A stretch of DNA of 64,000 bases from Candidatus Omnitrophota bacterium (GCA_016177405.1 JACOVG010000024.1:7079-71078), one strand, 5' to 3'; counted from the first letter of the stretch, positions 15,730 through 41,525 are shown. Notes: generated by a model not told the origin, from the letters alone. Translations and numbers: made by a program.

Positions 15730-17389
15730 CGGCAAGCCGGTCACCGTGCCGGAAGGGACCACGGTGATCCAGGCGGCCGAAAAGCTCGGGATCTTCGTCC
15801 CGCGCTACTGCTACCACCCCGGCCTCTCGGTCGCCGGCAACTGCAGGATTTGCCTGGTGGAGGTGGCGAAAAGCCCCAAGCTTCAGATCGCCTGCAACAC
15901 GCCCGCCGCCGAGGGGATGGTGGTGCTCACCCGCGGCGCGAAGGTTGAGGAGGGCCGGCAGGCGGTGCTGGAGTTTCTCCTGATCAACCATCCCCTGGAC
16001 TGCCCGGTCTGCGATCAGTCGGGGGAGTGCGACCTCCAGAACTTCTACATGACCTACGGCCTCTACGACCCCCGCTTCAAGGAGCAGAAGGTGAAAAAGG
16101 CCAAGGCCGTCGCGATCGGGCCGAAGGTCATGCTGGACGCCGAGCGCTGTATCCTTTGCTCCAGGTGCGTGCGCTTCACCGACGAGGTCACGAAGACCGG
16201 CGAGTTCGGGATCTTCAATCGGGGTGACCGCTCCCAGATCGGCCTGTATCCCGGCAAGACGCTGGACAACCCCTACTCCGGCAATGTGGTGGACATCTGC
16301 CCGGTGGGGGCCCTGACCGACCGGGACTTCCGGTTCAAGGCCAGGGTCTGGTACCTCTCGACGGCCCCGTCGGTGTGCGGCGGCTGTTCCCGCGGATGCA
16401 ACGTCGACCTCCATTACGTCCTGGACCGGCCCCACCTGGCCCAGGGCGCGCGGGTGATGCGGCTCAAGCCCCGCTTCAACCCCGACGTCAACCGGTGGTG
16501 GATGTGCGACGAGGGTCGCTACGGCTACAAATTCATGGATCAGAAACGGCTTACCCGGGTGACCCACCGCGGGTCGGAAAGCACCTGGGAAGAGGCCCTG
16601 ACGGCCCTGGCCGGCTGGCTCGCCCGGGCCCGGGAGGAGGGCCGGCTGGATCAGGTGGGAGTGATCCCCTCCGCGCGGTTGACCACCGAGGAGCTTTTTC
16701 TGATCCGGAAGCTGTTTCAGGAAGCGCTTGGATTGAAGAACTGCCTCCTGGACCTCCCGCCCAAAGACGGCACCAGCGACGGCTTTCTGATTCAGGCGGA
16801 TAAAAACCCGAATACAATGGGCGCCGCGCTTTTGGACCTCTCACCCTCACCCCAACCCTCTCCCATCAAGGGAGAGGGCGGTGGGGCGGGGGATGGCCTG
16901 TCCATCCTCCAGAAGGCCCTGGACGGCCAGCTGAAGGCGCTCTGGATCTTCGGCCACGATCTGGTGGGGCTTCTGGGAGAAGAGAAGACGGCCCAGCTGG
17001 CCAAACAGCTTGAGCTTCTTGTCTATCAGGGTTCGAACGAAAACCCGACCGCGCGCCATGCCCATTGGGTCCTGCCCGGCGCGGTCTACGTGGAGAAGGA
17101 CGGCACCTTCGTGAACTGCCAGGGGCGGGTCCAGAGGGTGGGCAAGGCGTTCAAGCCCCTTCCTGGGGCGCGGCCGGAGGCGGAATTTCTGGTGGAGTTG
17201 GCCAAGCGGCTTGAGATCCAGGTCCAGGGCCGGACGCCCGAGGAGCTGTTTGCCTGGCTGGCGCGGGAGGTCCCCGCCTTCGCGGGGCTCACCTACGAAA
17301 AGCTGGGCTGGCAGGGGATGGCCGTAAACTTGTCGTCATCCTCGCGAAAGCGAGGATCCCCGATCGAGTCGGGGATGACAAACCCATGA
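15710..17389 (+). CDS. nuoG: NADH-quinone oxidoreductase subunit G, short form
   Basis: The N-terminal 2Fe-2S and 4Fe-4S cysteine clusters (CRICLVEV, HPLDCPVCDQSGECDLQ, CILCSRCVRF) are present. The protein is 559 aa and contains a repeat-derived insertion; its last ~20 codons are repeat-derived. Confidence 0.85.
   Translation: MPTLTIDGKPVTVPEGTTVIQAAEKLGIFVPRYCYHPGLSVAGNCRICLVEVAKSPKLQIACNTPAAEGMVVLTRGAKVEEGRQAVLEFLLINHPLDCPVCDQSGECDLQNFYMTYGLYDPRFKEQKVKKAKAVAIGPKVMLDAERCILCSRCVRFTDEVTKTGEFGIFNRGDRSQIGLYPGKTLDNPYSGNVVDICPVGALTDRDFRFKARVWYLSTAPSVCGGCSRGCNVDLHYVLDRPHLAQGARVMRLKPRFNPDVNRWWMCDEGRYGYKFMDQKRLTRVTHRGSESTWEEALTALAGWLARAREEGRLDQVGVIPSARLTTEELFLIRKLFQEALGLKNCLLDLPPKDGTSDGFLIQADKNPNTMGAALLDLSPSPQPSPIKGEGGGAGDGLSILQKALDGQLKALWIFGHDLVGLLGEEKTAQLAKQLELLVYQGSNENPTARHAHWVLPGAVYVEKDGTFVNCQGRVQRVGKAFKPLPGARPEAEFLVELAKRLEIQVQGRTPEELFAWLAREVPAFAGLTYEKLGWQGMAVNLSSSSRKRGSPIESGMTNP
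16848..16905. repeat. GGGAGAGGG-hairpin repeat copy inserted in-frame inside nuoG
   Basis: The sequence ctcaccctcaccccaaccctctcccatcaagggagagggcggtggggcggggg encodes LSPSPQPSPIKGEGGGAGDG. It is the same family as the tandem copies at 29478-29565 and the copy at 45545-45596. Confidence 0.5.
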
Positions 17390-29477: not shown

Positions 29478-29565
29478 CCCGTCCTTCTCCCCTCACAGGG
29501 GAGAAGGTAAGGTTGAGGGGTACCTCTTTCCCTCTCCCCTCGCGGGAGAGGGCGGGGGGTGAGGG
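29478..29565. repeat. Two tandem GGGAGAGGG-hairpin repeats upstream of nuoJ
   Basis: The first copy is cttctcccctcacaggggagaaggtaaggttgagggg. The second copy is ccctctcccctcgcgggagagggcggggggtgagggg. Confidence 0.55.
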
Positions 29566-29589
29566 GTGTCCCTTTTTGGAGCGTCCCCG

Positions 29590-29628
29590 ATATACGATAT
29601 GTACTATTAGCCATACTTCTGGTATACT
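29590..29628 (+). promoter_or_regulatory. AT-rich region with an extended -10 (TGgTATACT), candidate promoter for the RHH-dcm-vsr genes
   Basis: TGgTATACT lies at 29620-29628 in the only AT-rich stretch between nuoJ and the RHH gene. The -35 element is weak. Confidence 0.3.
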
Positions 29629-29732
29629 CTTACTGTGGACAAAGATTACGGCAGCTTTATTTGGAACCTAGAGAAGAAGCGGAAAGATCAGGATCTTTGG
29701 CGCGGGCTATTGGAGAGGAGGGAAGAGATACT

Positions 29733-29969
29733 ATGAGCGGGAAAAGTAGCTGGGAGATGCCGGTGGGTAAGCTAAGCCGCGTGAGAGATTTTCTGCCTCC
29801 GCCTCATCGGCTTGTGGTGGAGGGGGAGATGGCGAAGGTGACCATAGCCCTTAGGAAATCGAGCGTCGATTTCTTTAAACTACAGGCGAGGAAGAATCAC
29901 ACGAAATATCAAAGAATGATCCGCGAACTGCTGGACCAGTACGCCTCCCACTACAGCCTGGCTGCTTGA
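29733..29969 (+). CDS. Ribbon-helix-helix / BrnA-antitoxin-like small protein
   Basis: The sequence MSGKSSWEMPVGKLSRVRDF...KVTIALRKSSVDFFKLQARKNHTKYQRMIRELLDQYA follows the BrnA/CopG-like pattern (beta-strand TIALR followed by two helices). No toxin partner is adjacent. Confidence 0.55.
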   Translation: MSGKSSWEMPVGKLSRVRDFLPPPHRLVVEGEMAKVTIALRKSSVDFFKLQARKNHTKYQRMIRELLDQYASHYSLAA

Positions 29970-30340
29970 TGGTTGGCCCCCTGGAGGGGGAGGCATTGCT
30001 GAAGTGTCAGGCCCAAGGCAGCGCGGCGCGGGCAGTAGACGCCTCCGATGATGCGTTGACAGGACCGCGGCAGAGACTCAGAATGATGAGCAATGATGCA
30101 GAAACCCAGCCGCGGCCAGCCCTGATGGCGGAACGCAAGGCGAAGAACCAGGACGGGGCGGACCGCCTCACAGTTACGCTGGCTCCCGGCCAGCGCAAGA
30201 TGCTGGAAACGATTGCGAGGGAGAACCATGTATCGCTCGCCTTCGTAGCCAGGCGGATGCTGTCCGATTTCATTCATGCTCACAGGAACAAGCGGCTACG
30301 CCTGTCGTTCGCCGAGACGCCCAGGAAAAGCGAGGCATGA
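29966..30340 (+). CDS. Ribbon-helix-helix (CopG/Arc/MetJ-like) DNA-binding protein
   Basis: The segment RLTVTLAPGQRKMLETIARENHVSLAFVARRMLSDFI is an RHH signature. An alternative start exists at the MM pair at 30083. The stop overlaps dcm. Confidence 0.55.
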   Translation: MMVGPLEGEALLKCQAQGSAARAVDASDDALTGPRQRLRMMSNDAETQPRPALMAERKAKNQDGADRLTVTLAPGQRKMLETIARENHVSLAFVARRMLSDFIHAHRNKRLRLSFAETPRKSEA

Positions 30341-31305
30341 GGAAACCGAAGCTGAGGCTCGTTGATCTGTTCGCAGGCATCGGAGGCGCCCGGATCGGCT
30401 TCGAAGCCGCCGGCTTCGAGACGGTCTACGCCAACGACTGCGATCCGAAGGTGGCGGAAGCCTACCGGCTGAATTTCGGAGAAGTCGACGGCGAGGAGCT
30501 TTTCAGCGTGATACGGAACGGAGGCATGAAGCGGGTGCCCAAGCGCTTCGACGTCCTGGCGGCCGGATTCCCCTGCCAGCCGTTCTCAGTCGCCGGGCGC
30601 AGGCGCGGATTTTCCGACGAAGGGCGGGGCGACCTACTCTTCGGGGTCGTAGAGATCCTGAAAGCCAGGAAGCCCGAAGCGGTTCTCCTGGAGAACGTGA
30701 AACATCTGAAGAACCACAACGACGAGAAAACCTTCCAGCGCATACAGGGGGAATTAAAGGGCGCGGGATACGCGATGAAAGCAGAGGTCCTGAACAGCCT
30801 GCACTACGGCAACGTGCCGCAGGCCAGAGAGCGCATCTACATCGTGGCTTTCCGCTCGCCGAGGACACTGATGAAGTTCCATTTCCCGGAGAGGATTCCC
30901 CTTTTGAGGACTATGCCGCAGATCCTGGAAAAGCACGTGCCCGAAAAGTACTACTACACGGAAGAAGACAGGTACATTTACCCCAAGCTGAAAGCGGCCG
31001 TCCGCCGGAAAGACCGCTTCTACCAGTACCGCCGCACCTACGTCCGGGAGAATAAAAGCGGCGCCTGCCCTACTTTGATGGCGAACATGGGGGCGGGCGG
31101 GCACAACGTCCCGATCGTAAGGGACGCGCAGGGCATCAGGCGGCTTACTCCCCGCGAATGCGCCCGGCTCCAGGGATTCCCCGAGTCGTTCGCGTTTCCA
31201 GCCGGCCAGGCCGACTCCCATCTGTACAGGCAGATCGGGAATTCGATGACGGTTCCGCTCATCGTCCGCCTTGCCGAAAACATAAGAATCGCCCTCGAGT
31301 CTTGA
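30337..31305 (+). CDS. dcm: DNA (cytosine-5)-methyltransferase
   Basis: C5-MTase motif I DLFAGIGG, motif IV GFPCQPFS, motif VI ENVKHL and motif X QIGNSM are all present. Confidence 0.92.
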   Translation: MRKPKLRLVDLFAGIGGARIGFEAAGFETVYANDCDPKVAEAYRLNFGEVDGEELFSVIRNGGMKRVPKRFDVLAAGFPCQPFSVAGRRRGFSDEGRGDLLFGVVEILKARKPEAVLLENVKHLKNHNDEKTFQRIQGELKGAGYAMKAEVLNSLHYGNVPQARERIYIVAFRSPRTLMKFHFPERIPLLRTMPQILEKHVPEKYYYTEEDRYIYPKLKAAVRRKDRFYQYRRTYVRENKSGACPTLMANMGAGGHNVPIVRDAQGIRRLTPRECARLQGFPESFAFPAGQADSHLYRQIGNSMTVPLIVRLAENIRIALES

Positions 31306-31314
31306 GCGCCCCCC

Positions 31315-31725
31315 ATGGCGGACACGTTCACGAAGCGGAAGCGGAGCGAAATCATGTCCCGCATCCACGCCAAGAATACGGGGATAGAAAGGCGCGCCTT
31401 CTCGCACCTCAGAAAACATCGCGTCCATTTCCAGGCCCACTACGGCAAAGCTCCCGGCAAACCGGACATCGCGGTTCCATCCAGAAAACTGGCGGTCTTC
31501 ATCCACGGCGATTTCTGGCACGGGTACCGCTTCTCCGCCTGGAGGCGCCGGATCCCCCGCGAATACTGGCGCGACAAGATAGCATCGAATATCAAGCGGG
31601 ACAGGAAGCACCGAAGGGCTCTGAAGCGACAAGGCTGGCGCGTCCTTAAGGTATGGGGCCACGAACTACTCGAAGATCCGGAGCTTGCCTGCAGGAAGAT
31701 CGCTGATTTCATGCGTACACGTTAA
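31315..31725 (+). CDS. vsr: Very-short-patch-repair endonuclease
   Basis: The Vsr signature KRSEIMSRI..KNT, PDIAV, AVFIHGDFWHG and GWRVLKVWGHEL is present. It lies immediately downstream of dcm. Confidence 0.92.
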   Translation: MADTFTKRKRSEIMSRIHAKNTGIERRAFSHLRKHRVHFQAHYGKAPGKPDIAVPSRKLAVFIHGDFWHGYRFSAWRRRIPREYWRDKIASNIKRDRKHRRALKRQGWRVLKVWGHELLEDPELACRKIADFMRTR

Positions 31726-31826
31726 AATATCATCCAGGGACTCCGTTTTTATCCCCTAGAATGATTCTCTGTATAAATAAATTACCTATTGACACAGGTA
31801 TTTACCCTGTGATACGGTGAGCGCAA

Positions 31827-32045
31827 ATGGACAGGCGCAGGGATAATTTCAAGAGGCTGGCGGCCTCAAGAACCAATGAAGTACTGAGGCGTTTGAAGAT
31901 ACTGGGGAACTGCGCCAATCGTAGCCATTACGACTACACGGAGGAGGAGGTCGCCAGGATCTTTTCCGAGATCGACAAACGGGCCAGGCAGGCGAGGGCG
32001 AAGTTCACCTTCCCGAGCGAAACCGGCGAGGAGTTCAGGATTTAG
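31827..32045 (+). CDS. Small hypothetical protein (72 aa), paralog of 35585..35833
   Basis: The segment FKRLAASRTNEVLRRLKILGNCANRSHYDYTEEEVARIFSEI aligns with FQRLATKRTQVALKRIGLVGNLTGPGYDYTPEQAAKIISAL in the downstream paralog. The stop is 2 nt before the GHKL gene. Confidence 0.5.
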   Translation: MDRRRDNFKRLAASRTNEVLRRLKILGNCANRSHYDYTEEEVARIFSEIDKRARQARAKFTFPSETGEEFRI

Positions 32046-32047
32046 CC

Positions 32048-33931
32048 ATGGCCAAGAAGCGTCCCAAAGCCGAGTCGGCTTTCCGAAGGACCCCTGAGCG
32101 GCCGGAGGGAAGCGCATGCTGGCTTTTCCCAAGCACCGATCATGGCGAGGACGATGGGTTCTCTGACTCGCAGCTGGAATACTTCCAGGGCGACCACGAG
32201 AGGCATGTCGCCAGGGAAACGATCCAGAACTCGGTCGACCAGCGCCTGGACTACAGGAGGCCCGTGTCGGTCGTATTCGAGCGCTTCGCCATGCCCGTCT
32301 CCGCGCTTCCGGGACACGCCAGCCTGCTTGATACGATGCGGCGTTGCCGGGAATTCGTAGCGGGCCAGGATAAAGCGGAACGCTTCTTCGATTCCGCAGC
32401 CAAGTTTTTAACCGGCACCCGGCTGCCGGTCTTGAAAATAAGCGATTCCAACACCTGCGGCCTCTCGGGCTCGGACATGGACAAAGAAGGCAATTGGTAC
32501 CGGCTGGTAAGGGCCGCAGGAACCAGTTCGCCGAAAGGCGTTGCGGGCGGATCTTTCGGCATCGGCAAAGGCGCGCCGATCGCAGCGTCGGCACTGAGGA
32601 CCGTCTTCTACTCCAGCATCAACGAAGCCGGCGAGCCGGTCTTCCAGGGGAAGTCCAGGCTCGTCAGCCACTACGACGGTGGCGGAGACGTCCGCCAGGG
32701 GGTCGGCTTCTACGGGACCGACGGCCACCGGGCGATACGGAACGCTGCCCTCATACCAAGCATCTTCGGGCGCAAAGAGCGCGGCACCGACATCTTCATC
32801 ATCAGCTACGCGATCGAGGGCAACTGGCTGGAGAAGCTCATCAAGCCGATCCTCTACAACTTCTGGCTCGCGATCCACCACGGCGACCTGGAAGTAACGA
32901 TCAGAGACGGCCGCGAAAAGACGATTTCGAAGGCGACCCTCGCGAAGGATCTCGCCGAACACGACTGCGGAAACGCGAGATTCTTCTTCGAAGCGGTCAC
33001 CAACCCGACGCAGACGTTTGAGAAAGACCTGCAGTACTTCGGAAACGCTTCCCTCTTCGTCAGGAAGCATCCGGATTACCCGAGCGAAGTGATGATGGTG
33101 AGGAAACCGCGGATGCTCGTCCGGGAGCGCCCGTTCCGCGCGCTGAGGGAGCCGTATGCAAGCGTGCTCGTATGCGACGACGACCGGGGGAACGACCTGT
33201 TGCGCGAACTGGAGCCGCCTGCGCACGACAAATGGGACAAGGCGCGCCACCCGGACGGGGAAGCGGCTCTGCGGGAGCTCGATCACTTCATCCGAAGCTC
33301 GCTCAAGAGCATGGGAGAGGCCGTTTCAGGAGAGCTCCAGGACATCCCCGGCCTCGACCGCTATCTGCCGGACAGCGACGACCGGGATCCGGCATTCCCC
33401 GGCGGGCCGGATGCCTTCGAGCCGTCGGAGCTCGCGACGTCCGAGGAGACGGGCCGGGAGGTGGGAGCGGCCGGAGAACCGGCCGAAGGATCGGTAGACG
33501 GCGTCCCGCGGCGGGCCGTCGTAGTGACAAGCCCGGCGGGAGGGGGGCGCCACCGAAAGGGCAAGAAAAGACTACGGCCGTCTCCTACGCCTCCTCCGGG
33601 CGAGGAAAAGGGGGAGGGGAAGCGCATCCGAACATCGGACATCCGCTTCAGGAGCTTCGTCCAGCGCGACGGCGGCGGAATCGAATACCGCGTCCTGATC
33701 ACCGGCCGCGAGCCCTGCGAAGGGGATATGCACCTCGTGGCAGTCGGAGACGACGGATCCTACGCCGCCGACGTGGAATCCGCGGTCGACGCCGACACCC
33801 GCGCTCCCTACCCGGTGAGCGGCCCAGCCATCCGGGGGCTGGCTGTAGGCAAAGGGGAAACAATCAAGCTGATCGTCCGGCTTGCATCGAACAAGAAGTA
33901 TGCGCTGGGGATCGAAGCTTATGAAGGTTAA
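32048..33931 (+). CDS. GHKL (Bergerat-fold, MORC/MutL/Hsp90-like) ATPase-domain protein, 627 aa
   Basis: The N-box ETIQNSVDQ, a G1-like LKISDSNTCGLSG and the G2 box GGSFGIGKGA are present. The C-terminal half is acidic and low-complexity, followed by a small terminal domain. There is no P-loop. Confidence 0.6.
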   Translation: MAKKRPKAESAFRRTPERPEGSACWLFPSTDHGEDDGFSDSQLEYFQGDHERHVARETIQNSVDQRLDYRRPVSVVFERFAMPVSALPGHASLLDTMRRCREFVAGQDKAERFFDSAAKFLTGTRLPVLKISDSNTCGLSGSDMDKEGNWYRLVRAAGTSSPKGVAGGSFGIGKGAPIAASALRTVFYSSINEAGEPVFQGKSRLVSHYDGGGDVRQGVGFYGTDGHRAIRNAALIPSIFGRKERGTDIFIISYAIEGNWLEKLIKPILYNFWLAIHHGDLEVTIRDGREKTISKATLAKDLAEHDCGNARFFFEAVTNPTQTFEKDLQYFGNASLFVRKHPDYPSEVMMVRKPRMLVRERPFRALREPYASVLVCDDDRGNDLLRELEPPAHDKWDKARHPDGEAALRELDHFIRSSLKSMGEAVSGELQDIPGLDRYLPDSDDRDPAFPGGPDAFEPSELATSEETGREVGAAGEPAEGSVDGVPRRAVVVTSPAGGGRHRKGKKRLRPSPTPPPGEEKGEGKRIRTSDIRFRSFVQRDGGGIEYRVLITGREPCEGDMHLVAVGDDGSYAADVESAVDADTRAPYPVSGPAIRGLAVGKGETIKLIVRLASNKKYALGIEAYEG

Positions 33932-34766
33932 TGCCAAATCCTATCCGCATCCGGTCCTGGGCAACGAAGACGATCTTGACGGCTCTTTCAGCGTGGACTT
34001 CCGCTACGAGCTGGGGAGGAAGGAAATCCTCTTGCTGCCTGCGTTCTCGATCAAAAGCCCGGCCATTGAGGAGCTCATCAGGAAGAACAGGGCGTCCTTC
34101 CTCGCCGAGGTGGAATGCCGGAGCACTTTTTTCAGGACATGCTTTTCGACCAGGAAACCACTCGAGCGCTTCTCCATCCCGGCGGCGCGGGTGCGGGAGC
34201 GGGTAACCGTAGGCTTCTATGTCTGCGCCGACGAAGACGTCAAGGGCTACCGGCCGAGCGGCTGCCATCCGGATTACGAAGGCGCCACGTTCGACGTGGA
34301 GAAGGGCGACGTGCTCGCAGCGGGGGGATTCTGCTCTTTCATAGCCGAGAAGGAGTTCGACCCCCTGCGGCCGCCGGTATCGTCTTTCATGGCCATCCGC
34401 GAGGGGCGGCACCACGAGGGCCTGATGGAGATCGATTACGACGAGGAAAAGATCGCAATCGAGCTGTCTAAAGCCGATTGGCGGGAATATGCCGGCATAC
34501 GGGGCCAGAAAGCTGCTGAGGGAGTCCTCCATGCCGCGATCGTCTTTCCCGTTCTGGTAAGCGCCATCCAGCACGTCCAGAATCCGAACTCCGACTACGA
34601 AGGCAAGAACTGGTTCGGCCGGCTCCAGACCATTCTTGAAACGAAGGGGCTCCGAGAGAGGGATCCTTTGGAAGCGGCCCAGAAGATCCTCGAAAACCCT
34701 GTTGCGAGGGCGCTGAGCGGCTTTTCCGCCCTGCTCGAACCGGGGAGCGAGCATGAGGACAGCTGA
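33921..34766 (+). CDS. Hypothetical protein (281 aa), component B of the GHKL cassette
   Basis: The ATG 33921 overlaps the GHKL gene stop (MKVNAKSYPHPVLGNEDDLDGSF...). No known motif was recognised. Confidence 0.5.
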   Translation: MKVNAKSYPHPVLGNEDDLDGSFSVDFRYELGRKEILLLPAFSIKSPAIEELIRKNRASFLAEVECRSTFFRTCFSTRKPLERFSIPAARVRERVTVGFYVCADEDVKGYRPSGCHPDYEGATFDVEKGDVLAAGGFCSFIAEKEFDPLRPPVSSFMAIREGRHHEGLMEIDYDEEKIAIELSKADWREYAGIRGQKAAEGVLHAAIVFPVLVSAIQHVQNPNSDYEGKNWFGRLQTILETKGLRERDPLEAAQKILENPVARALSGFSALLEPGSEHEDS

Positions 34767-35649
34767 AAGGCGCTGCCAGAAGATTTTCAGGCGGGCGGCC
34801 ATAGCGCGCCTCCGGTCCGAACTGCGGGACGGCAGGGCCCTGAAGGGGTACTTCGAAGAAACATTCAGGATCAAACCGAAAGAGGTCATGCTCTCGACCA
34901 TCGAGCTCAGAGGCAAGATGCCGAAGCTGAAAGCCCCAAAGAGGGACCCTGTATCGGCTGATCTCGAGAATGCGATCGCCCTGCATTCCTATTACTCAGG
35001 GTTGGATGAAACCCAGGCGTCCGACCCGCGCCTGTGGGCGTACCTGAGCCATGTCGAATTCAGGAAGTATGCCCTGGTCCGGTGGGGCCTAAGCGGCTCA
35101 TTCAAGGTTCTGCAGGGCGAGGCCGAAAAAATCAAGGCAATCAATCAGATCATCGACCACTGGTTCGTAAGCGGCAACGACCGCGATCTGCGCAGACACG
35201 CCATCGCCAGGCTCTGGTGGGCGGCGCATCTGACCTTCGCGCCGTGGGAGCGGGATCCGGAATTCTTCGCCGGCCTCAAGCGCAAGGATCCCTACCATTA
35301 CACGCGGGTCCTGCTGGCAACGCAGGACATCTACCAGCAAGTCCTGGAGCGCGCGATGGGGCGCTCCAACCGGATTTTAATCTCCATTCTGGATTATCTG
35401 GACCAAAACCCGGATTTTGCGGCGTCGCGGGAGCGGATACGAGGGTTCACCAAGGAGCTCAACCTCCTTTATGGGACGAAGAAACTGATCGGGCTGGACA
35501 GGGGCAGCCTCAGCCTCCTCATCGAGAGCGTGGCCAGCGATGCTGCCGGGGACGGAGCAGTTACAACGCAAGGAGGATCAGAAGATGGGCGCAGAGCAAG
35601 CAGTGCGGGCAGAAACGAAGGCGCAGCGGTTCCAGCGGCTGGCGACTAA
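34753..35649 (+). CDS. Hypothetical protein (298 aa), component C of the GHKL cassette
   Basis: The start overlaps the stop of B. The internal segment RLWWAAHLTFAPWERDPEFFAGLKRKDPYHYTRVLLATQDIYQQVL is followed by a low-complexity tail. There is no P-loop or nuclease motif. Confidence 0.5.
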   Translation: MRTAERRCQKIFRRAAIARLRSELRDGRALKGYFEETFRIKPKEVMLSTIELRGKMPKLKAPKRDPVSADLENAIALHSYYSGLDETQASDPRLWAYLSHVEFRKYALVRWGLSGSFKVLQGEAEKIKAINQIIDHWFVSGNDRDLRRHAIARLWWAAHLTFAPWERDPEFFAGLKRKDPYHYTRVLLATQDIYQQVLERAMGRSNRILISILDYLDQNPDFAASRERIRGFTKELNLLYGTKKLIGLDRGSLSLLIESVASDAAGDGAVTTQGGSEDGRRASSAGRNEGAAVPAAGD

Positions 35650-35833
35650 GCGGACGCAGGTGGCGCTGAAAAGAATCGGGCTGGTCGGCAATCTCACCGG
35701 CCCCGGCTACGACTACACTCCGGAGCAAGCGGCGAAGATCATCAGCGCCCTGCGCGCAGCCGTGAGCGCCGTTGAAACCAAATTCAGCCGGACCCGCGGA
35801 GCCAAGGCGTCGGAAGCCTCATTCACGCTGTAG
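35585..35833 (+). CDS. Small hypothetical protein (82 aa), paralog of 31827..32045
   Basis: This is the internal Met of ORF 35540..35833. It shares the RLA-RT..L+R..GN...YDYT.E motif with the upstream small protein and overlaps the 3' end of gene C. Confidence 0.45.
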   Translation: MGAEQAVRAETKAQRFQRLATKRTQVALKRIGLVGNLTGPGYDYTPEQAAKIISALRAAVSAVETKFSRTRGAKASEASFTL

Positions 35834-35912
35834 CATGTCTGCAGAATAGGCGGCCATTCGCGATTTTCTTTCTGATCGGCTAATTCGGGTCGCCTTTTTC
35901 TGGGCTTATACG

Positions 35913-36812
35913 ATGCCAATTGCAGAATCGAAGCTTTCCACGTGGGCTCACCAGGGCGCGATAACTGCAGCGCGCCAGACCTACAGGGCAATTCAAACAG
36001 CCCTAGAGGCCGGTTCGTCTTCCGTTGCCCCTAGAGGTTTCGAAGTCTACCTCCAGGGTTCTTATAAGAATGACACGAATGTCCGGAGCGACAGCGACGT
36101 AGACGTCGTCGTAGAGTTCCGCGAAACTTTCGGGAGAGACCTCGCGGCACTGCCGTTGGAGCAGCAAAGGGCCTACGCGCTGGCATATCAAGATGCTGCA
36201 TATAAGCTGGAGCATTTCCGGTCCGGCGTTTTAAGCGCGCTCCAAAACCATTTCGGGAGAACAGCAGTTTCCAGAGGAAGAAAATCCATAAAAGTCGCGC
36301 CCGCCTATCGGCTGCGAGCCGATGTCGTGCCCTGCATCACCTTCCGAAGGTATCTTTACTTCCGAAGCCTGGGCGACCAAAATTATGTCGAGGGAATCAG
36401 GTTTGATATACCGTCGGAAAACAACAGGACGGTCATCAACTATCCGAAGCGCCACTATGACAACGGCGTTGCCAAAAATAGTCCTGCCAGAACCAACGGG
36501 TGGTACAAGCACACCGTACGAATGTTCAAGAACGCGAGATCCAAACTGATCGACGGCGGAGCAATCGGGCAGGGCCTGGCCCCTTCCTATTTTCTCGAGT
36601 GCCTCCTATTCAACGTGCCTGACCGCTGTTTCGGAGGAGGAGATGAGGAAACGTTCTATGGCGTGCTGAACTGGCTGAACCAGGCGAACCTTCAGAATCT
36701 CAAATGCCAGAACGGCGTTGTAAACTTGTTCGGCGAATCTCCCGAGCAGTGGTCAACGAGCCAAGCATCCGAGTTGATCGGCGCGCTGGTCGGTCTTTGG
36801 AATAACTCGTAA
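35913..36812 (+). CDS. SMODS / CD-NTase-like nucleotidyltransferase (candidate CBASS cyclase)
   Basis: The motif LQGSYKNDTNVRSDSDVDVVVEF matches the GS-X9-13-[DE]h[DE]h pattern. A third acidic residue lies in the strand RADVVPCITF, and the helical C-terminus carries SYFLECLLFNVP. GC content is lower than in flanking DNA. Confidence 0.6.
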   Translation: MPIAESKLSTWAHQGAITAARQTYRAIQTALEAGSSSVAPRGFEVYLQGSYKNDTNVRSDSDVDVVVEFRETFGRDLAALPLEQQRAYALAYQDAAYKLEHFRSGVLSALQNHFGRTAVSRGRKSIKVAPAYRLRADVVPCITFRRYLYFRSLGDQNYVEGIRFDIPSENNRTVINYPKRHYDNGVAKNSPARTNGWYKHTVRMFKNARSKLIDGGAIGQGLAPSYFLECLLFNVPDRCFGGGDEETFYGVLNWLNQANLQNLKCQNGVVNLFGESPEQWSTSQASELIGALVGLWNNS

Positions 36813-36818
36813 CCCCGT

Positions 36819-37427
36819 ATGCATCCCTACAGCACTGACTCGAAAGAGCGGATATTCGTCCCCTTCTTCTTAGCCGTATTGAGCATCCTGGGTGCTCTGC
36901 TTTTTCACAAGTGGCTTGCCTTTCTAAGAATTGAACTGCCGTGGTGGTCTGAGGCTCCGTCCGTTATGGGTGTTTATGGATTATTCCACGGTTTCTTCGA
37001 TCGGGCGGCTTGGCGATGGCCTATCCTTCGGAAAATTGGCATTGTGAAGATCCCAGATCTAAACGGTTCGTGGAAGGGCGAAGCCGGTTCCTCTTTTGAT
37101 AGGCATAGCTCGGGGCGCGAGATAACCGTTGAAATCCAACAACGCTGGTCTCGAATTTCTGTGGTTTTAAGGGCGCCGGATTCCATTTCGCGTAGCTTGA
37201 TAGGCGGCCTTCTCACGGAGGATCCGATTGGAGCGATGCTCAGCTACGAGTACCTAAATGAGCCGAAATCTAATGCGCCCGCTACGATGCAGACTCATCG
37301 AGGGACGACTCGGCTAATTATCGGGGAGAATCTTCGAACGCTTGAAGGCGAGTACTATTCGGGACGTGGCAGAAGCAGCGCGGGGGTTCTCAACCTTAAG
37401 CGAATTACCCGGGATGGACGGGTCTAA
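36819..37427 (+). CDS. Two-TM effector-like protein (SLATT/Cap15-like candidate)
   Basis: Two N-terminal TM helices (FVPFFLAVLSILGALLFHKWLAF and SVMGVYGLFHGFF) precede a ~130-aa soluble domain. The gene lies 7 bp after the NTase gene. Confidence 0.55.
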   Translation: MHPYSTDSKERIFVPFFLAVLSILGALLFHKWLAFLRIELPWWSEAPSVMGVYGLFHGFFDRAAWRWPILRKIGIVKIPDLNGSWKGEAGSSFDRHSSGREITVEIQQRWSRISVVLRAPDSISRSLIGGLLTEDPIGAMLSYEYLNEPKSNAPATMQTHRGTTRLIIGENLRTLEGEYYSGRGRSSAGVLNLKRITRDGRV

Positions 37428-37442: not shown

Positions 37443-38990
37443 TTGCATACGCTGACCATGGCCACCGCCAATGATGAAAAGATGATCGCCGGACTTCCGA
37501 CACAGCACCAGGCTGCTCTCAGGTGGTTCTCTGAGAATGCCGGAGGAGAATGTCAGTGGCCGGGTTCTTCTCCTGCCGGGCTGCTCGCCAGCAGAGCAAA
37601 AGGGATCTACAAGCCGCGCTGGTCAAAATATGCATTGAGCGTCCGGCAAGCTGTGAACAGCCCGTATCCAAATTTAGAGCCCTCACCGAGAGCTGATGGA
37701 ACCTGGGCTTATTCCTATTTCCAGGAGGGCAAGGATCCGCATCTGCGCGACTCCAGATATACAAACCGAGCGTTAGTCGCATGCTGGCATGATCGCGTTC
37801 CGATCGGAGTACTGAAGCAGGTTAGCGGGCGCCCAAAAGCTCGATACCGGGTGCTAGGCCTTGCCCTCGTAACAGGGTGGAAAAAGGGCTACTTCCTCTT
37901 GGAAGGATTCTCGCCCAGCGGAACAGTAAACCATGGGGATGGGACTCGTGCGCAAGATTGGAGCCGCACTGCTCCTAAACACCTGATCGCCAACATCACA
38001 TGGAATCGCCATGGGTGGAGAAATCTTTATGTGGATCCGCGTGCGGGGCACCGGTACGCTCGAAAATATCCGGGGCACGAATCGTTAAACTTCGACTTTT
38101 CCAAGAAAGGCATCGATACAGCGGATGAAGTTTATGGCCACATTGCATGGACGAGGCCGCCCGCAAAATTCGGGCCTCCCGGTTTCATCTTCTTTTATTC
38201 AAGGAATCTTGATACGGGAGGCGGCGAGATCGTGGGTGTCTATGGCAACGCGCGAATTACAGACAGAAGGAAGGTTCCTTGCAGCGGGTTCCACAACAAT
38301 GTTTTGGAGCTGAATGTCGCTGCCCAGAAGTCCTTGTCCATGCTTTTCCCCGTCCCCCTTAGAGCCAGCCGTTATTCCAACGGCAGGCTGGTTCCCCAAT
38401 GCGGCTTCACCTATATTGGAAAAACTTTGGCGGATGGAATCTTACGCGACGAGATCCATGCCCTTCACACTGCTGGCGGGCCCCGGCTTCCAGAGTTGCA
38501 GAAGCTGAAGAATATCTACTCCCTGGCAACAGGGAAAAACTACCAGGATGATTACCAGGACGACGATCTGCAGCAACAAGAGGAGATAGTCGGCCATCTA
38601 CAGATACAGAAAGTCTCAAGGCAGTCCATCGCAGAAGAGCTTCGCCGCCTCCGGCCAACTGATCCTCAGACGGTCACAATCAGGGCAAAGGCATACAAGC
38701 GGGATAACAAGACTATCGCCCAGCTCAAAATTCTGCGCGGCTTTAAATGTCAGCTTTGCCAAACACAGATCCGAAAAAGAAACGGCGGGTTTTACGCTGA
38801 GGCTGCGCATATTACCCCCAAGAGCCGCAGGGGGCTAGAGATGCCTGACAACATTCTGATTCTCTGTCCGAATCATCACAAGGAATTCGATTTAGGGGAC
38901 AGAAAAATAACGTCTCGGCTGCAGGAGAAAATCGAGTTTTACCTCAACGGTCGGTTTTTTAAGGTCGACCTGCGACTGCTGCGACAGTAA
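37443..38990 (+). CDS. HNH endonuclease with N-terminal modified-base-reader-like (SRA/EVE/PUA-like) domains; putative type IV restriction enzyme
   Basis: The C-terminal HNH motif reads FKCQLCQT...AEAAHITPKS...ILILCPNHHKEFD. The N-terminal beta-rich segments YTNRALVACWHDRVPIGVL and GFIFFYSRNLDTGGGEIVGVYGNARI resemble PUA-like folds. GC is lower (~52%). Confidence 0.65.
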   Translation: MHTLTMATANDEKMIAGLPTQHQAALRWFSENAGGECQWPGSSPAGLLASRAKGIYKPRWSKYALSVRQAVNSPYPNLEPSPRADGTWAYSYFQEGKDPHLRDSRYTNRALVACWHDRVPIGVLKQVSGRPKARYRVLGLALVTGWKKGYFLLEGFSPSGTVNHGDGTRAQDWSRTAPKHLIANITWNRHGWRNLYVDPRAGHRYARKYPGHESLNFDFSKKGIDTADEVYGHIAWTRPPAKFGPPGFIFFYSRNLDTGGGEIVGVYGNARITDRRKVPCSGFHNNVLELNVAAQKSLSMLFPVPLRASRYSNGRLVPQCGFTYIGKTLADGILRDEIHALHTAGGPRLPELQKLKNIYSLATGKNYQDDYQDDDLQQQEEIVGHLQIQKVSRQSIAEELRRLRPTDPQTVTIRAKAYKRDNKTIAQLKILRGFKCQLCQTQIRKRNGGFYAEAAHITPKSRRGLEMPDNILILCPNHHKEFDLGDRKITSRLQEKIEFYLNGRFFKVDLRLLRQ

Positions 38991-39311: not shown

Positions 39312-40670
39312 ATGTACCTCGTTGCTCTGCCGCCAACCCGACGGGATTCTAAGGTCTACCGGCTGGTGGACGCGCTGGTGGACGCCAAGGAGAGAGGCGT
39401 GGACGTTCAGGTGGCGCTGGACCGGAACATCGCCTGGACGGAGGATAACAATCTCGGATTCTGGAATTCCGCCGGGAAGAACGAGAAGGCCTACCGGTAT
39501 CTCCGGGAGAAGGGGGTGAAGGCCTACTTCGATGATGAGGCGGTCTTCACGCATGCCAAGGCGCTGGTGGCCGACCAGAAGACCGTGATCTTAGGCTCGA
39601 CCAACTGGAGTGAGGCGGCACTGACCCGCAACGTGGAAGCCAACGTCCTGATCCGGTCCAAGGCGTTTGCTGAAGAAATTCTGAAGGGTTTCGAGACGCT
39701 GAAGCTCTACGCGCCGGAGATCGGGAACTCCGAAACCGTCGTGGTGCCGCTGGCATTCCTCAACAGTAAGCAACTGCTGGGACGGATGGTGGCCGCCCAT
39801 GATGACCGGTCTTTTGACACCTACCTCTTTCTGCTCAAGGTCCTGGGTAAAAAAGGGGAGGGGAAAGAGGAGATCGCGGGTTATGAGGCGCTCAAGGAGC
39901 TGCTCGGAATCCGGGGCGAAAACGAGTGGAATAACGGGCGGGCTGTCAGGAGGGTCCTGAAGCGGCTGCAAGACAACTACGGGCTGGTCACCCTTTCTTA
40001 CAAGCGGGGAGAAGAACCGGTGGTTTCTCTGAAGGCGATAGAGGACCGAACCGGGCCGGGTTTGGCTTCCGGCGCGCAGGTGGTGGAGATTCCCGTCACT
40101 TACTGGGAATGGGGCTGGAATAAGGAATTGAGCTTTCCGGGAAGGGTGATGTACGTTCTGGGAACGATGTATTCCTCCGCGTCGCGGACGGCCCCGACCT
40201 GGTTCAGATCGGGGGATGATTTGGTGAAGAGACATGGTTTCGCAAGGATGTTTCTTCAGGACGGGTTTATGGACCTGCGGCGGCATAATCTGGTGGAGGT
40301 TCGGCCGGATCGGCTCAAGCCCGGGAATTACAGCGGCCGGAAGGCGAATCGGTACGCTCCCAACCCGCTGTATGACCCGCGGGAATTGAAACGCAGATTC
40401 ACGGAGCTTAAGGAACGCTACGGAAAAAAGAAGGTGCAAAAGGCCGCGGGCTACGCCTCGCTGGTCTACGAAGACAGCGATGTGGAGGCGGTGGAGCGGC
40501 TGATTCTGCTGGAGGAGGAGTTCGGGGCGGAAGTGGTCCAGCGGGCGGCGAGAGTTGTGGGGAAGATGCACGGCAGCAACCCCAAAAAGACGGTGGGGTA
40601 CCTGATCGCAACCATCCAGGGTATTGGGACCCGGGAAGGCCGGAAGGTTCCCCTTCCTAGTCGAAACTGA
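39312..40670 (+). CDS. Phospholipase D / Nuc-family (HKD) protein with a ~300-aa C-terminal extension
   Basis: The HKD motif HAKALVADQKTVILGSTNWS is present. The upstream in-frame sequence (39138-39311) encodes a signal-peptide-like stretch and the first beta-strands, but it is closed by a TAG at 39135 and has no ATG/GTG/TTG start. Confidence 0.6.
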   Translation: MYLVALPPTRRDSKVYRLVDALVDAKERGVDVQVALDRNIAWTEDNNLGFWNSAGKNEKAYRYLREKGVKAYFDDEAVFTHAKALVADQKTVILGSTNWSEAALTRNVEANVLIRSKAFAEEILKGFETLKLYAPEIGNSETVVVPLAFLNSKQLLGRMVAAHDDRSFDTYLFLLKVLGKKGEGKEEIAGYEALKELLGIRGENEWNNGRAVRRVLKRLQDNYGLVTLSYKRGEEPVVSLKAIEDRTGPGLASGAQVVEIPVTYWEWGWNKELSFPGRVMYVLGTMYSSASRTAPTWFRSGDDLVKRHGFARMFLQDGFMDLRRHNLVEVRPDRLKPGNYSGRKANRYAPNPLYDPRELKRRFTELKERYGKKKVQKAAGYASLVYEDSDVEAVERLILLEEEFGAEVVQRAARVVGKMHGSNPKKTVGYLIATIQGIGTREGRKVPLPSRN

Positions 40671-40833
40671 AGTGAGTCTGGGGATTCTCTTTCTGGATCA
40701 TTCCTTGGATTACCCCGACGAGCTGTGAAGCGGCCTTGAGGGCGCTTTCCGCTTCCGTGAGGGTTCCAAGTGTTCCACCAGCGCGGCATAATTCTTTCCT
40801 AAGAGCTGGTGGGTCAGTGAATTCAAGCAGCAT
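40657..40833 (-). CDS. Small ORF (58 aa) overlapping the 3' end of the wHTH-NTase gene
   Basis: The translation is MLLEFTDPPALRKELCRAGGTLGTLTEAESALKAASQLVGVIQGMIQKENPQTHFSFD. It overlaps the NTase gene end by 11 bp and has no recognised motif. Confidence 0.25.
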   Translation of the reverse strand: MLLEFTDPPALRKELCRAGGTLGTLTEAESALKAASQLVGVIQGMIQKENPQTHFSFD

Positions 40834-41389
40834 TCGGGTTTCCCTTTAGGGGGATCTTCCTGTCGGTCAGCACTTCCTCAAGGAAAGGGTCGTTTTTGTT
40901 TCGTTTCTGGCGGTATTCGTCTTCGCTGTACAGCTTGTAGTTGATCTCCCGCTGGAGCTTCTTCTCAAGGCGCGTGATTTCCCGAACGAGTTTATCCTCC
41001 ACGCTGGGTTTTCCGACGACCAGCAGATCGATGTCGGAATCCTTCCGCTGGCCGCCCTTCGCGAAGGATCCATAGATCAGGGCTACCCTTACTTCGGGAA
41101 GCCGTTCAACGAGGTTCCGCAGGGTTCCTTCCACGCCGGTCGTTTTGGCGACGATCCTTTTCAGCTCGGGGTAAAGGGGGTGGCGGGTATCCGCCTGAAA
41201 GAAACGGGCGTGGCCTCGGTATTCACTTTTAAGGAGTCCCTCCTCCGTCAGTGAGTTTAGAGCGCGTTGAAAAACCCCGGGCTTCTTCCCCAGGGTCCTT
41301 CCTACCTCCTGCATGTAGAAGGACTTCTCGGGGTTTGTGTAGAACAAACCAAGAAGAAGAAGCCGGTTTTGGCTTAAGAGCTGTTTCAT
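40823..41389 (-). CDS. Winged-HTH + nucleotidyltransferase-domain protein
   Basis: The start was set at the internal Met (MKQLLSQNRLLLLGLFYTNPEKSFYMQEVGRTLGKKPGVFQRALNSLTEEGLL = wHTH). The NTase motif LIYGSFAKGGQRKDSDIDLLVVG is present. Confidence 0.7.
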   Translation of the reverse strand: MKQLLSQNRLLLLGLFYTNPEKSFYMQEVGRTLGKKPGVFQRALNSLTEEGLLKSEYRGHARFFQADTRHPLYPELKRIVAKTTGVEGTLRNLVERLPEVRVALIYGSFAKGGQRKDSDIDLLVVGKPSVEDKLVREITRLEKKLQREINYKLYSEDEYRQKRNKNDPFLEEVLTDRKIPLKGNPNAA

Positions 41390-41406
41390 CGGGCCAATTG
41401 TCGATC

Positions 41407-41424
41407 TGCATACGATTGTATGCA
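41407..41424. promoter_or_regulatory. Perfect inverted repeat TGCATAC-gatt-GTATGCA, a candidate operator upstream of the wHTH-NTase gene
   Basis: The palindrome lies 18 bp upstream of the wHTH-NTase start codon. It sits in an AT-rich spacer. Confidence 0.35.
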
Positions 41425-41459
41425 TAATGCATAGATTTGGAAGGGAATTGTGAATCCCG

Positions 41460-41525
41460 GCCCGCAACAGAAGGGAATTGACCGGCCTGAAAAAAATCGG
41501 TATCATCAAACTCATCATGCCGTTT
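41460..41525 (+). repeat. Direct repeat copy 1 (duplicate of the tkt promoter, 5'UTR and first codons)
   Basis: This ~65-66 bp stretch is identical to 60810-60875. It includes TTGACC-17 bp-TATCAT and ATGCCGTTT. Here it is followed by only a 24-codon ORF. Confidence 0.75.

Follow-up and report, generated by a model that had tools for sequence, protein, structure and literature searches.

The five-gene cassette analysed here lies between positions 31827 and 35833 of a 64,000-nt stretch of Candidatus Omnitrophota DNA, which we call the window and to which all coordinates refer unless another locus is named. Its open reading frames (ORFs) are designated S1, A, B, C and S2. A preliminary description had put the cassette forward as a candidate novel defence module standing beside a Dcm-Vsr pair. 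We describe its database status, its linkage to the neighbouring C5-methylase across related loci and the proteins that it encodes, and we weigh how it may act. The genes of the cassette and of the Dcm-Vsr unit are, with lengths in amino acids (aa) and isoelectric points (pI):

30125-30340, + strand: small ribbon-helix-helix (RHH)-like protein, about 71 aa; its stop overlaps the Dcm start
30337-31305, + strand: C5 cytosine DNA methyltransferase, Dcm-like (Pfam DNA_methylase, 4e-80; TIGR00675, 9e-82)
31315-31725, + strand: Vsr very-short-patch repair endonuclease (Pfam Vsr, 2e-20; TIGR00632, 2e-29)
31827-32045, + strand: S1, 72-aa basic small protein, pI 10.0, leading the operon and belonging to no known family
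32048-33931, + strand: A, 627-aa protein, predicted MORC/MutL-like GHKL+S5 ATPase (PDC-M33A)
33921-34766, + strand: B, 281-aa acidic protein, pI 5.3 (PDC-M33B), with the N-terminus MKVNAKSYPHPVLGNEDD
34753-35649, + strand: C, 298-aa basic protein, pI 9.7, all-alpha, DUF6339 (PDC-M33C)
35585-35833, + strand: S2, 82-aa divergent paralogue of S1, pI 10.7

The ORF call returns all five cassette genes on the + strand at the positions first reported for them, and the tight co-directional packing with overlapping starts and stops is as described: S1 and A are 2 nt apart, and the overlaps amount to 11 nt for A/B, 14 nt for B/C and 65 nt for C/S2. A ribosome-binding site, AAGGAGG, precedes the ATG of S2 by 7 nt. 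The peptides highlighted earlier are present, namely ARETIQNSVDQ, KISDSNTCGLSG and GGSFGIGKGAP in A and RLWWAAHLTF and PYHYTRVLL in C.

The A-B-C trio is catalogued, though uncharacterised, rather than undiscovered. In PADLOC-DB, A matches PDC-M33A with E = 4.9e-124, residues 24-626 aligning with positions 4-625 of the 627 in the profile. B matches PDC-M33B nearly end to end (1.1e-59), and C matches PDC-M33C (1.6e-33, the best of four C profiles). The three genes are adjacent and co-directional, in the same order and orientation as PDC-M33A/B/C. The PDC systems are 145 phage defence candidates, untested, that were derived through guilt-by-embedding in BREX, DISARM, type I restriction-modification (R-M) and Hma loci (bioRxiv 10.1101/2024.01.29.577857). 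None of the PADLOC profiles of Mza, BREX, DISARM, Dnd and Ssp matches, and PDC-M33 alone is returned for A, B and C. The exclusion of these five systems in the preliminary description thus stands, while its wider statement that the cassette matches no named system gives way to the PDC-M33 candidate. In Pfam, C is DUF6339 (5.5e-40) and there is no match for S1, A, B or S2; NCBIfam has no match for any of the five proteins. Our literature search found no paper on PDC-M33, on DUF6339 or on a combination of GHKL, Vsr and defence, and none that characterises the A-B-C family experimentally.

Linkage of A-B-C to a C5-methylase

Profile-guided scanning of GTDB, with each species represented by one genome (185,579 species genomes), yields 235 loci with a relative of A. 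The best 80 of these 235 were used for locus analysis, with six-frame ORFs labelled by jackhmmer. They are patchily distributed over Patescibacteria, Bacteroidota, Planctomycetota, Verrucomicrobiota, Nitrospirota, Deinococcus, Bacillota, Thermotogota and others. A-B-C is intact in 71 of the 80 loci, most of the remainder being truncated contigs, and its conservation as a unit far exceeds chance. Loci that diverge in A also diverge in B and C, the Spearman correlation of pairwise divergence being 0.83 for A and B and 0.78 for A and C. For A and the methyltransferase it is 0.48 (Mantel p = 0.005).

A Dcm-like C5-methyltransferase is found in 70 of the 80 loci, Vsr in 38, i.e. about half, and an S-family gene in 46, with a maximum of one per locus. 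Fifty loci have A-B-C complete and are flanked by 3 kb or more on either side. In 46 of these a C5-methyltransferase is found no farther than 3 kb from A-B-C, and in 49 no farther than 10 kb. No partner of A-B-C is more constant than the C5-methylase, with Vsr as the usual accessory. We therefore describe the system as a methyltransferase (with or without Vsr), an optional S and A-B-C, and not as a cassette that merely sits beside Dcm-Vsr, as it was first presented.

The arrangement of these genes falls into recurrent classes. Dcm, with or without Vsr, may be followed after a gap by S-A-B-C, or S-A-B-C may have Dcm and Vsr convergent downstream. A further class is Dcm-A-B-C, with or without a trailing Vsr, in which the methyltransferase stop abuts the start of A; it comprises 19 loci, and S stands between the two genes in none of them. 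The order S-Dcm-A-B-C occurs in loci L080 and L092. No other or classical restriction enzyme is found in the window or its close relatives, and the cassette, like the conserved core of the 80 loci, has neither a helicase nor a recognisable nuclease.

Homologues on annotated elements also lie among defence genes. On a conjugative plasmid of Lactococcus lactis, the trio has an AlwI-family R-M system on one side and AbiGI/AbiGII on the other. In Ligilactobacillus salivarius it lies within a type I R-M locus with the order HsdS-HsdM-[small gene]-A-B-C-MmeI fragments-methyltransferase-helicase, an embedding of the kind from which PADLOC derived its candidates. On a Priestia plasmid, S-A-B-C adjoins a Sau3AI-like endonuclease and dcm, and in a temperate phage of Clostridium innocuum S-A-B-C and a methyltransferase are found next to the integrase. 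Viral contigs, 2.9 million in all, yielded only 5 loci. The methylase-less A-B-C of two Deinococcus loci (L050 and L052) and of plasmid CP029775.1 adjoins an RPA-type plasmid replication initiator.

Long C5-methylases of about 515-580 aa are seen in many Bacteroidota, Saccharimonadia and Bacillus loci (L047 at 14550-16142 on the - strand; L025, L026, L029, L036, L042, L044-L046, L053 and L073). The one that was scanned, from L047, is a fusion of a LexA DNA-binding domain, an S24 peptidase and DNA_methylase. This fusion suggests that expression of such methylases may be under SOS or autocleavage control.

Proteins of the cassette

Protein A had been described as a GHKL ATPase of MORC/MutL/Hsp90 type, and its predicted structure agrees with this. 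The AlphaFold2 model has a mean pLDDT (predicted local distance difference test) of 77.6. Its core (residues 20-425) is well predicted, and the C-terminal domain (530-627) is rich in beta structure. The disordered segment 440-523 between the two corresponds to the acidic low-complexity linker noted earlier. A Foldseek comparison of the model with the PDB returns 49 matches at E <= 1e-3, all of them GHKL ATPases, over about 430 columns. They include Topo VI-B, the 43K fragments of GyrB/ParE and Hsp90/Grp94, and they cover both ATPase and transducer. The ATP-binding motifs can be followed in an alignment of 32 A sequences with 33-78% identity to the window protein. Invariant are E57, N61 and D64 of the N-box (motif I, ExxxNxxD), D133, T136, G138, L139 and G141 of G1 (motif II, DxGxG-like), and G168, G171, I172, G173 and A176 of G2 (motif III, GxxGxG). 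Further invariant residues are R352 and, within LEPPxHDxW, L385, E389, P391, H393 and W396. The model and these residues support A as a GHKL ATPase of the MORC/MutL type with a Bergerat fold, an S5/transducer domain and intact ATP-binding motifs.

Confirmation of the GHKL assignment by sequence profiles was tried and set aside, as the searches with Pfam, with hmmsearch against the PDB and with hhalign against E. coli MutL/HtpG either failed or reached the N-box only. Pfam HATPase_c and HATPase_c_3 do not match the window protein, and a single member of the 32 matches HATPase_c_3, at E = 0.24. The PDB profile search gives no match. The hhalign comparison with E. coli MutL aligns only 16 columns (E = 0.09), which are exactly the MutL N-box with E29 and N33. 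Sequence profiles miss the GHKL domain of A because the family is too divergent.

The ExxxH residues E389 and H393 directly follow the last S5 helix, which spans model residues 379-388. By eye, the consensus LGxVxLYVRK / VxMxRKPKMLV is out of register with the MORC S5 motif GhXhhpXXRhl. Within the acidic disordered linker, a motif EETGREVGA at residues ~463-472 persists across the family, with E467 conserved to at least 90%; a role as docking peptide is conceivable, with B, C or the ATPase domain as the partner.

The statement that B and C lack recognisable catalytic motifs holds. For B, 34 members searched singly or as a profile have no Pfam or PDB sequence relatives. A profile search with B retrieves 2,667 representative relatives, 702 of them at E <= 1e-30; the best 150 are all standalone and nearly all of about 280 aa. 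Conserved in 68 diverse sequences are P9, P11, V12, D17, D18, C66, T69, R72, D118, D130, D186, W231 and Q254. We considered B as a PD-(D/E)xK nuclease, since close homologues have P117-D118 followed by D-x-E-K, and rejected this because the downstream residues are not kept in the diverse set.

In C, the residues R93, W95, H100, W111, R153-L-W-W156 and E199 are invariant. The search with its predicted fold gives no known fold relative and no nuclease match. The HEPN RNases, with an Rx4-6H motif in an all-alpha four-helix core, are at most a tentative comparison for C. Some DUF6339 proteins from metagenomes of the Candidate Phyla Radiation (CPR), P0282, P0316 and P0334, carry a C-terminal DnaA domain IV (PF08299) of about 105 aa, which could be either a true DNA-binding fusion or an artefact of gene calling. 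The idea that S2 is a split C-terminal domain of C was dropped, as the CPR extension is a true domain IV of DnaA, with no likeness to S by eye.

The paralogy of S1 and S2 is confirmed, with 37% identity over 54 aa (E = 1e-11). The S consensus reads KRxRFxRLAxxRxxxVLxxLxxLGNCxNRxNYxYTEExVxKIFxxIE...KxKF, the family is basic (median pI 9.8), and 29 S proteins give no Pfam, PDB or helix-turn-helix match. A single S copy heads the operon in 46 of the 80 loci. In related loci, a sigma70-type promoter, TTGACA-N17-TGATAYAT, stands at a fixed position 5' of S, and in several loci the gene upstream of S ends in a terminator hairpin. The corresponding signals of the window are:

31789-31817, + strand: putative promoter of the S1-A-B-C-S2 unit, TTGACA (31789-31794), 17-nt spacer, ATACGG (31812-31817)
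31793-31798 and 31806-31811, + strand: inverted repeat CACAGG / CCTGTG with N7 between, within the spacer of the S1 promoter

Taken alone, the CACAGG-N7-CCTGTG repeat is weak, as 4 of 30 shuffles reach it. In a subgroup of loci, a dyad TGTAAAT-N9-ATTTACA overlaps the promoter. Of its 43 occurrences in 1.34 Mb, 6 fall in the 11 kb located 5' of S, where 0.35 are expected, an enrichment of ~17-fold.

S2 is a different matter from S1. Its identity to other S proteins does not exceed 39%, and orthologues located 3' of C are found only in the closest relatives (L083-L085, L093 and L094). Other loci contain at most one S, at the operon head. This overturns the idea of two bracketing small proteins as the architecture of the system. 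With S2 confined to the closest relatives and S2-like genes standing alone elsewhere, S2 is probably a lineage-specific add-on and not a core component, and it forms no system-defining bracket. The stand-alone S2-like genes are those of L095-L102 (e.g. L096:4462-4746 and L098:2926-3177). They are 84-96% identical to each other and adjoin ribonucleotide reductase and VIT-VWA genes; a more distant relative (38-47% identical), that of L101, has a viral-type PolB gene in its vicinity. These genes imply a wider unannotated family of small basic proteins.

Proposed methylation gating and its alternatives

The closest published description of the trio itself is PDC-M33 (Payne et al. 2024, 10.1101/2024.01.29.577857), three genes defined by hidden Markov models that A, B and C of the window match. 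The linkage to methylase and Vsr, the leading S and what is said here on the folds of A and C come from the present work. At the level of the ATPase, the families paraMORC1-5 combine GHKL and S5 domains, and the R-M operons in which they occur also encode cytosine methylases and Vsr (Iyer, Abhiman & Aravind 2008, PMC2292703). These ATPases were predicted there to be R-M components together with Dcm and Vsr, and for paraMORC2 an ExxxH was reported as strongly conserved in the C-terminal part of the S5 domain (PMC2292703). A resembles paraMORC2 in two of its described features, the N-terminal GHKL+S5 region and the invariant E389-x3-H393. The cassette also shares with paraMORC operons the neighbourhood of a cytosine methylase and Vsr and a sporadic, laterally mobile distribution. 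In contrast to those operons, which mainly encode superfamily II helicases and nucleases of the restriction endonuclease fold, it has neither and contains B and C instead.

A is also distinct from its better-known relatives. Eukaryotic MORC/SMCHD1 and bacterial MutL show no significant sequence-profile similarity to A, and by eye the S5 motif GhXhhpXXRhl is not evident in it. A lacks the CW, coiled-coil and hinge domains of MORC/SMCHD1 as well as the C-terminal endonuclease domain of MutL, and has a disordered linker and beta-rich C-terminal domain of its own. A comparable gene set has been reported in loci with a C5-methyltransferase, a HEF_HK GHKL protein, a Response_reg_2 protein and Vsr (Bellieny-Rabelo et al. 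2021, PMC8011034). Both sets have an upstream C5 methylase, a divergent GHKL protein, a family-specific partner and an often adjacent Vsr. The protein families differ, as A has no HATPase_c_3/HEF_HK Pfam match and B no Response_reg_2. Like classical R-M systems, the present loci include a linked methyltransferase, which in 19 of them is in the same operon; a restriction endonuclease domain is not recognised in A, B or C.

The analysis establishes gene content, conservation, methylase linkage, a predicted fold for A and, for B and C, the lack of known folds or motifs. Defence, gating by methylation and the effector step are inferences, as are a clamp-like action of A and what B, C and S do. We hold it to be fairly probable, short of confident, that the locus is a methylation-gated, ATP-driven, R-M-like anti-phage system made up of two transcription units. 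In the first, RHH-Dcm-Vsr, Dcm would methylate host cytosines at the target site and so provide the self mark, and Vsr would mend the T:G mismatches that arise from deamination of 5-methylcytosine, lowering the mutational cost. The second, S1-A-B-C with S2 as a lineage-specific extra, would be the interference machinery. By analogy with its structural relatives, A would dimerise once ATP is bound and serve as a DNA clamp or switch driven by ATP. The acidic B and the basic C (DUF6339) would recognise unmethylated target DNA and supply the effector step. This step could be cleavage, with the conserved acidic residues clustered in B, the invariant R, H and E of C and the ExxxH of A as candidate sites, or it could be a non-cleaving entrapment. 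S1 would delay or tune the expression of A-B-C relative to the methylase.

For S, we propose the role of an operon-leading controller, by analogy with the controller (C) proteins of type II R-M systems. Like these, S is small and heads the restriction-side operon with its own promoter, with a dyad in a subset of loci. It is basic, and it is missing where Dcm is joined tightly to A. Known R-M C proteins are Xre-type helix-turn-helix proteins. In contrast to them, S has neither a helix-turn-helix nor any other Pfam or PDB match.

Several observations weigh against the methylation-gated reading. Neither family profiles nor motif inspection reveal a nuclease domain or motif in A, B or C, which leaves the restriction step unaccounted for, and the literature search found no experimental evidence that the A-B-C family acts in defence. 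The support for S as a controller is indirect: palindromes 5' of S have a mean score of 7.0 against 5.8 in shuffled sequence, a modest enrichment overall. The methyltransferase co-diverges with A only loosely, as the lower correlation given above indicates. In Deinococcus hohokamensis (L050) and D. navajonensis (L052) there is no methyltransferase within 10 kb of A-B-C. The Lactobacillales plasmid versions, in which A has 27-28% identity, are without a C5-methyltransferase and adjoin N6-methyltransferase systems, and in Priestia the dcm may belong to the adjacent Sau3AI-like enzyme.

These last cases speak for a methylation-independent defence, i.e. an abortive-infection-like or sensor-effector system that lodges by or in R-M loci, with Dcm-Vsr as a separate orphan or neighbour module. 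The L. salivarius and L. lactis copies lie in or by R-M genes (and AbiG in the latter) and are both devoid of a C5-methyltransferase, the Deinococcus copies have none nearby, the Priestia dcm has a second possible owner, and the PDC candidates as a class were found through embedding in other defence systems (10.1101/2024.01.29.577857). Against this stand the near universality of the C5-methyltransferase in the closest loci and the 19 loci that have it in one operon with A-B-C and contain no other restriction enzyme. S-Dcm-A-B-C operons exist as well, and such regularity across phyla is hard to square with mere co-location. We regard a methylation-independent system as unlikely, though still deserving of attention. 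The missing nuclease could also be taken at face value within the methylation-gated scheme. The MORC-like ATPase, guided by B and the DUF6339 protein as two proteins of new fold, would then clamp or compact unmethylated DNA and block its replication or transcription, and S would be a new class of controller without a helix-turn-helix. This variant in its entirety seems to us rather improbable.

The MutL-like features of A and the presence of Vsr raise the alternative of a DNA-repair or epigenetic module, in which A, B and C would aid Vsr repair or read the 5-methylcytosine set by Dcm, and which could matter in CPR bacteria with reduced repair. A-B-C persists in the loci that lack Vsr, is found, with neither Dcm nor Vsr, among the Abi and R-M genes of Lactobacillales plasmids, and is carried by a temperate phage next to the integrase. 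Its sporadic occurrence, 235 loci in 185,579 species genomes, is unlike that of housekeeping repair, and the window locus lies in a defence island of lower G+C. A repair role is on these grounds very unlikely. The least credible alternative in our view, with a slim chance only, is a post-segregational addiction module that stabilises its mobile element, phage defence being incidental. In type II R-M systems, separate control of the M and R units gives addiction behaviour. The R-M-like layout with separately controlled units is present here, and copies occur on conjugative and mobilisable plasmids and in prophages. Most loci, however, are chromosomal, with few among the viral contigs, and an addiction module would share its molecular mechanism with the R-M-like reading and does not exclude it.

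Prokaryotic MORC/paraMORC ATPases were predicted in 2008 as parts of R-M systems and as ancestors of the eukaryotic MORCs. The class was anticipated then, and the locus will be of little surprise to specialists. To this, the present analysis adds linkage statistics for the methylase and S, fold-level support for a MORC-like A, a C without fold relative, a B without sequence relative and the demotion of S2. The family offers a compact test case with a near-obligate C5-methylase, a confident MORC-like ATPase model, two partners in which no fold is recognised and a possible new controller. Given that no nuclease is visible, the effector step would need a new catalytic fold or work without cleavage, and both outcomes would be informative. 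If the nuclease-free variant were true, it would be a bacterial counterpart of the eukaryotic link between MORC and DNA methylation. Homologues on plasmids of L. lactis, L. salivarius and Priestia and in the C. innocuum phage make the family tractable beyond the uncultured Omnitrophota and CPR. For annotation of PDC-M33 in the style of PADLOC, the neighbouring methylase, Vsr and S should be considered as system components.

Further signals and neighbouring genes

The remaining features of the region are:

30056-30084, + strand: promoter-like site TTGACA-17-CAGAAT, 5' of the RHH-Dcm-Vsr unit (consensus scan, 10/12 matches)
35877-35902, + strand: terminator-like hairpin (35877-35892, 5-bp stem) with T-rich tail, between S2 and the CD-NTase gene
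35913-37427, + strand: type I cyclic oligonucleotide-based anti-phage signalling system (CBASS) pair, CD-NTase and Cap15 effector with two transmembrane segments, directly 3' of the cassette
37443-38990, + strand: 515-aa protein with C-terminal HNH_2 (6e-8) and a large unassigned N-terminal region
39312-40670, + strand: 452-aa PLD-like protein (PLDc_2, 8e-22)
40823-41518, - strand: helix-turn-helix and MNT-type nucleotidyltransferase (NTP_transf_2/Polbeta, 1e-10)

Promoter-like sites such as that at 30056-30084 are not more frequent in the region than in shuffled sequence, which makes this one weak evidence. The same holds for terminator-like sites, so that the hairpin at 35877-35902 is suggestive only.

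The neighbours named in the preliminary description, Dcm-Vsr upstream and a CBASS pair and an HNH protein downstream, are borne out by profile matches. The CD-NTase matches the PADLOC Cyclase profile at 2e-110 and NCBIfam DS2_2_antiphage at 2.7e-94, just under the cutoff, and Cap15 is matched in PADLOC (1.6e-71) and Pfam (5.5e-32). The HNH protein has a weak, below-threshold similarity to restriction endonucleases that bind phosphorothioate DNA (NCBIfam, 1.4e-9) and to enzymes of type IV (PADLOC, 1.7e-4). With the CBASS, HNH, PLD and nucleotidyltransferase genes, the window cassette apparently sits in a defence island, as had been suggested. The G+C content is 0.52-0.61 across 29-42 kb and ~0.65 in the preceding region of nuo genes. 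No tRNA or integration-site boundaries of an island are found between 20 and 50 kb of the window.

S2 was also considered as part of the CBASS operon and rejected: it accompanies the cassette even where other genes follow, and the weak terminator-like site precedes the CD-NTase gene. In the closest relatives with S2, a transmembrane protein and a HipA-like kinase are found downstream instead of CBASS.

The RHH-like protein (30125-30340) has no Pfam match, and its assignment was made by eye only. Its motif LTVTLAPGQRKMLETIARENHVSLAFV is kept 5' of Dcm in the closest relatives L081 (6031-6285) and L082 (1128-1337), and the gene is a probable regulator of the methylase unit. Just 5' of it lies a 136-aa ORF (29559-29969, + strand) that has no Pfam match at E <= 0.01; it ends in ...KVTIALRKSSVDFFKLQARKNHTKYQRMIRELLDQYASHY and by eye resembles BrnA-type antitoxins.

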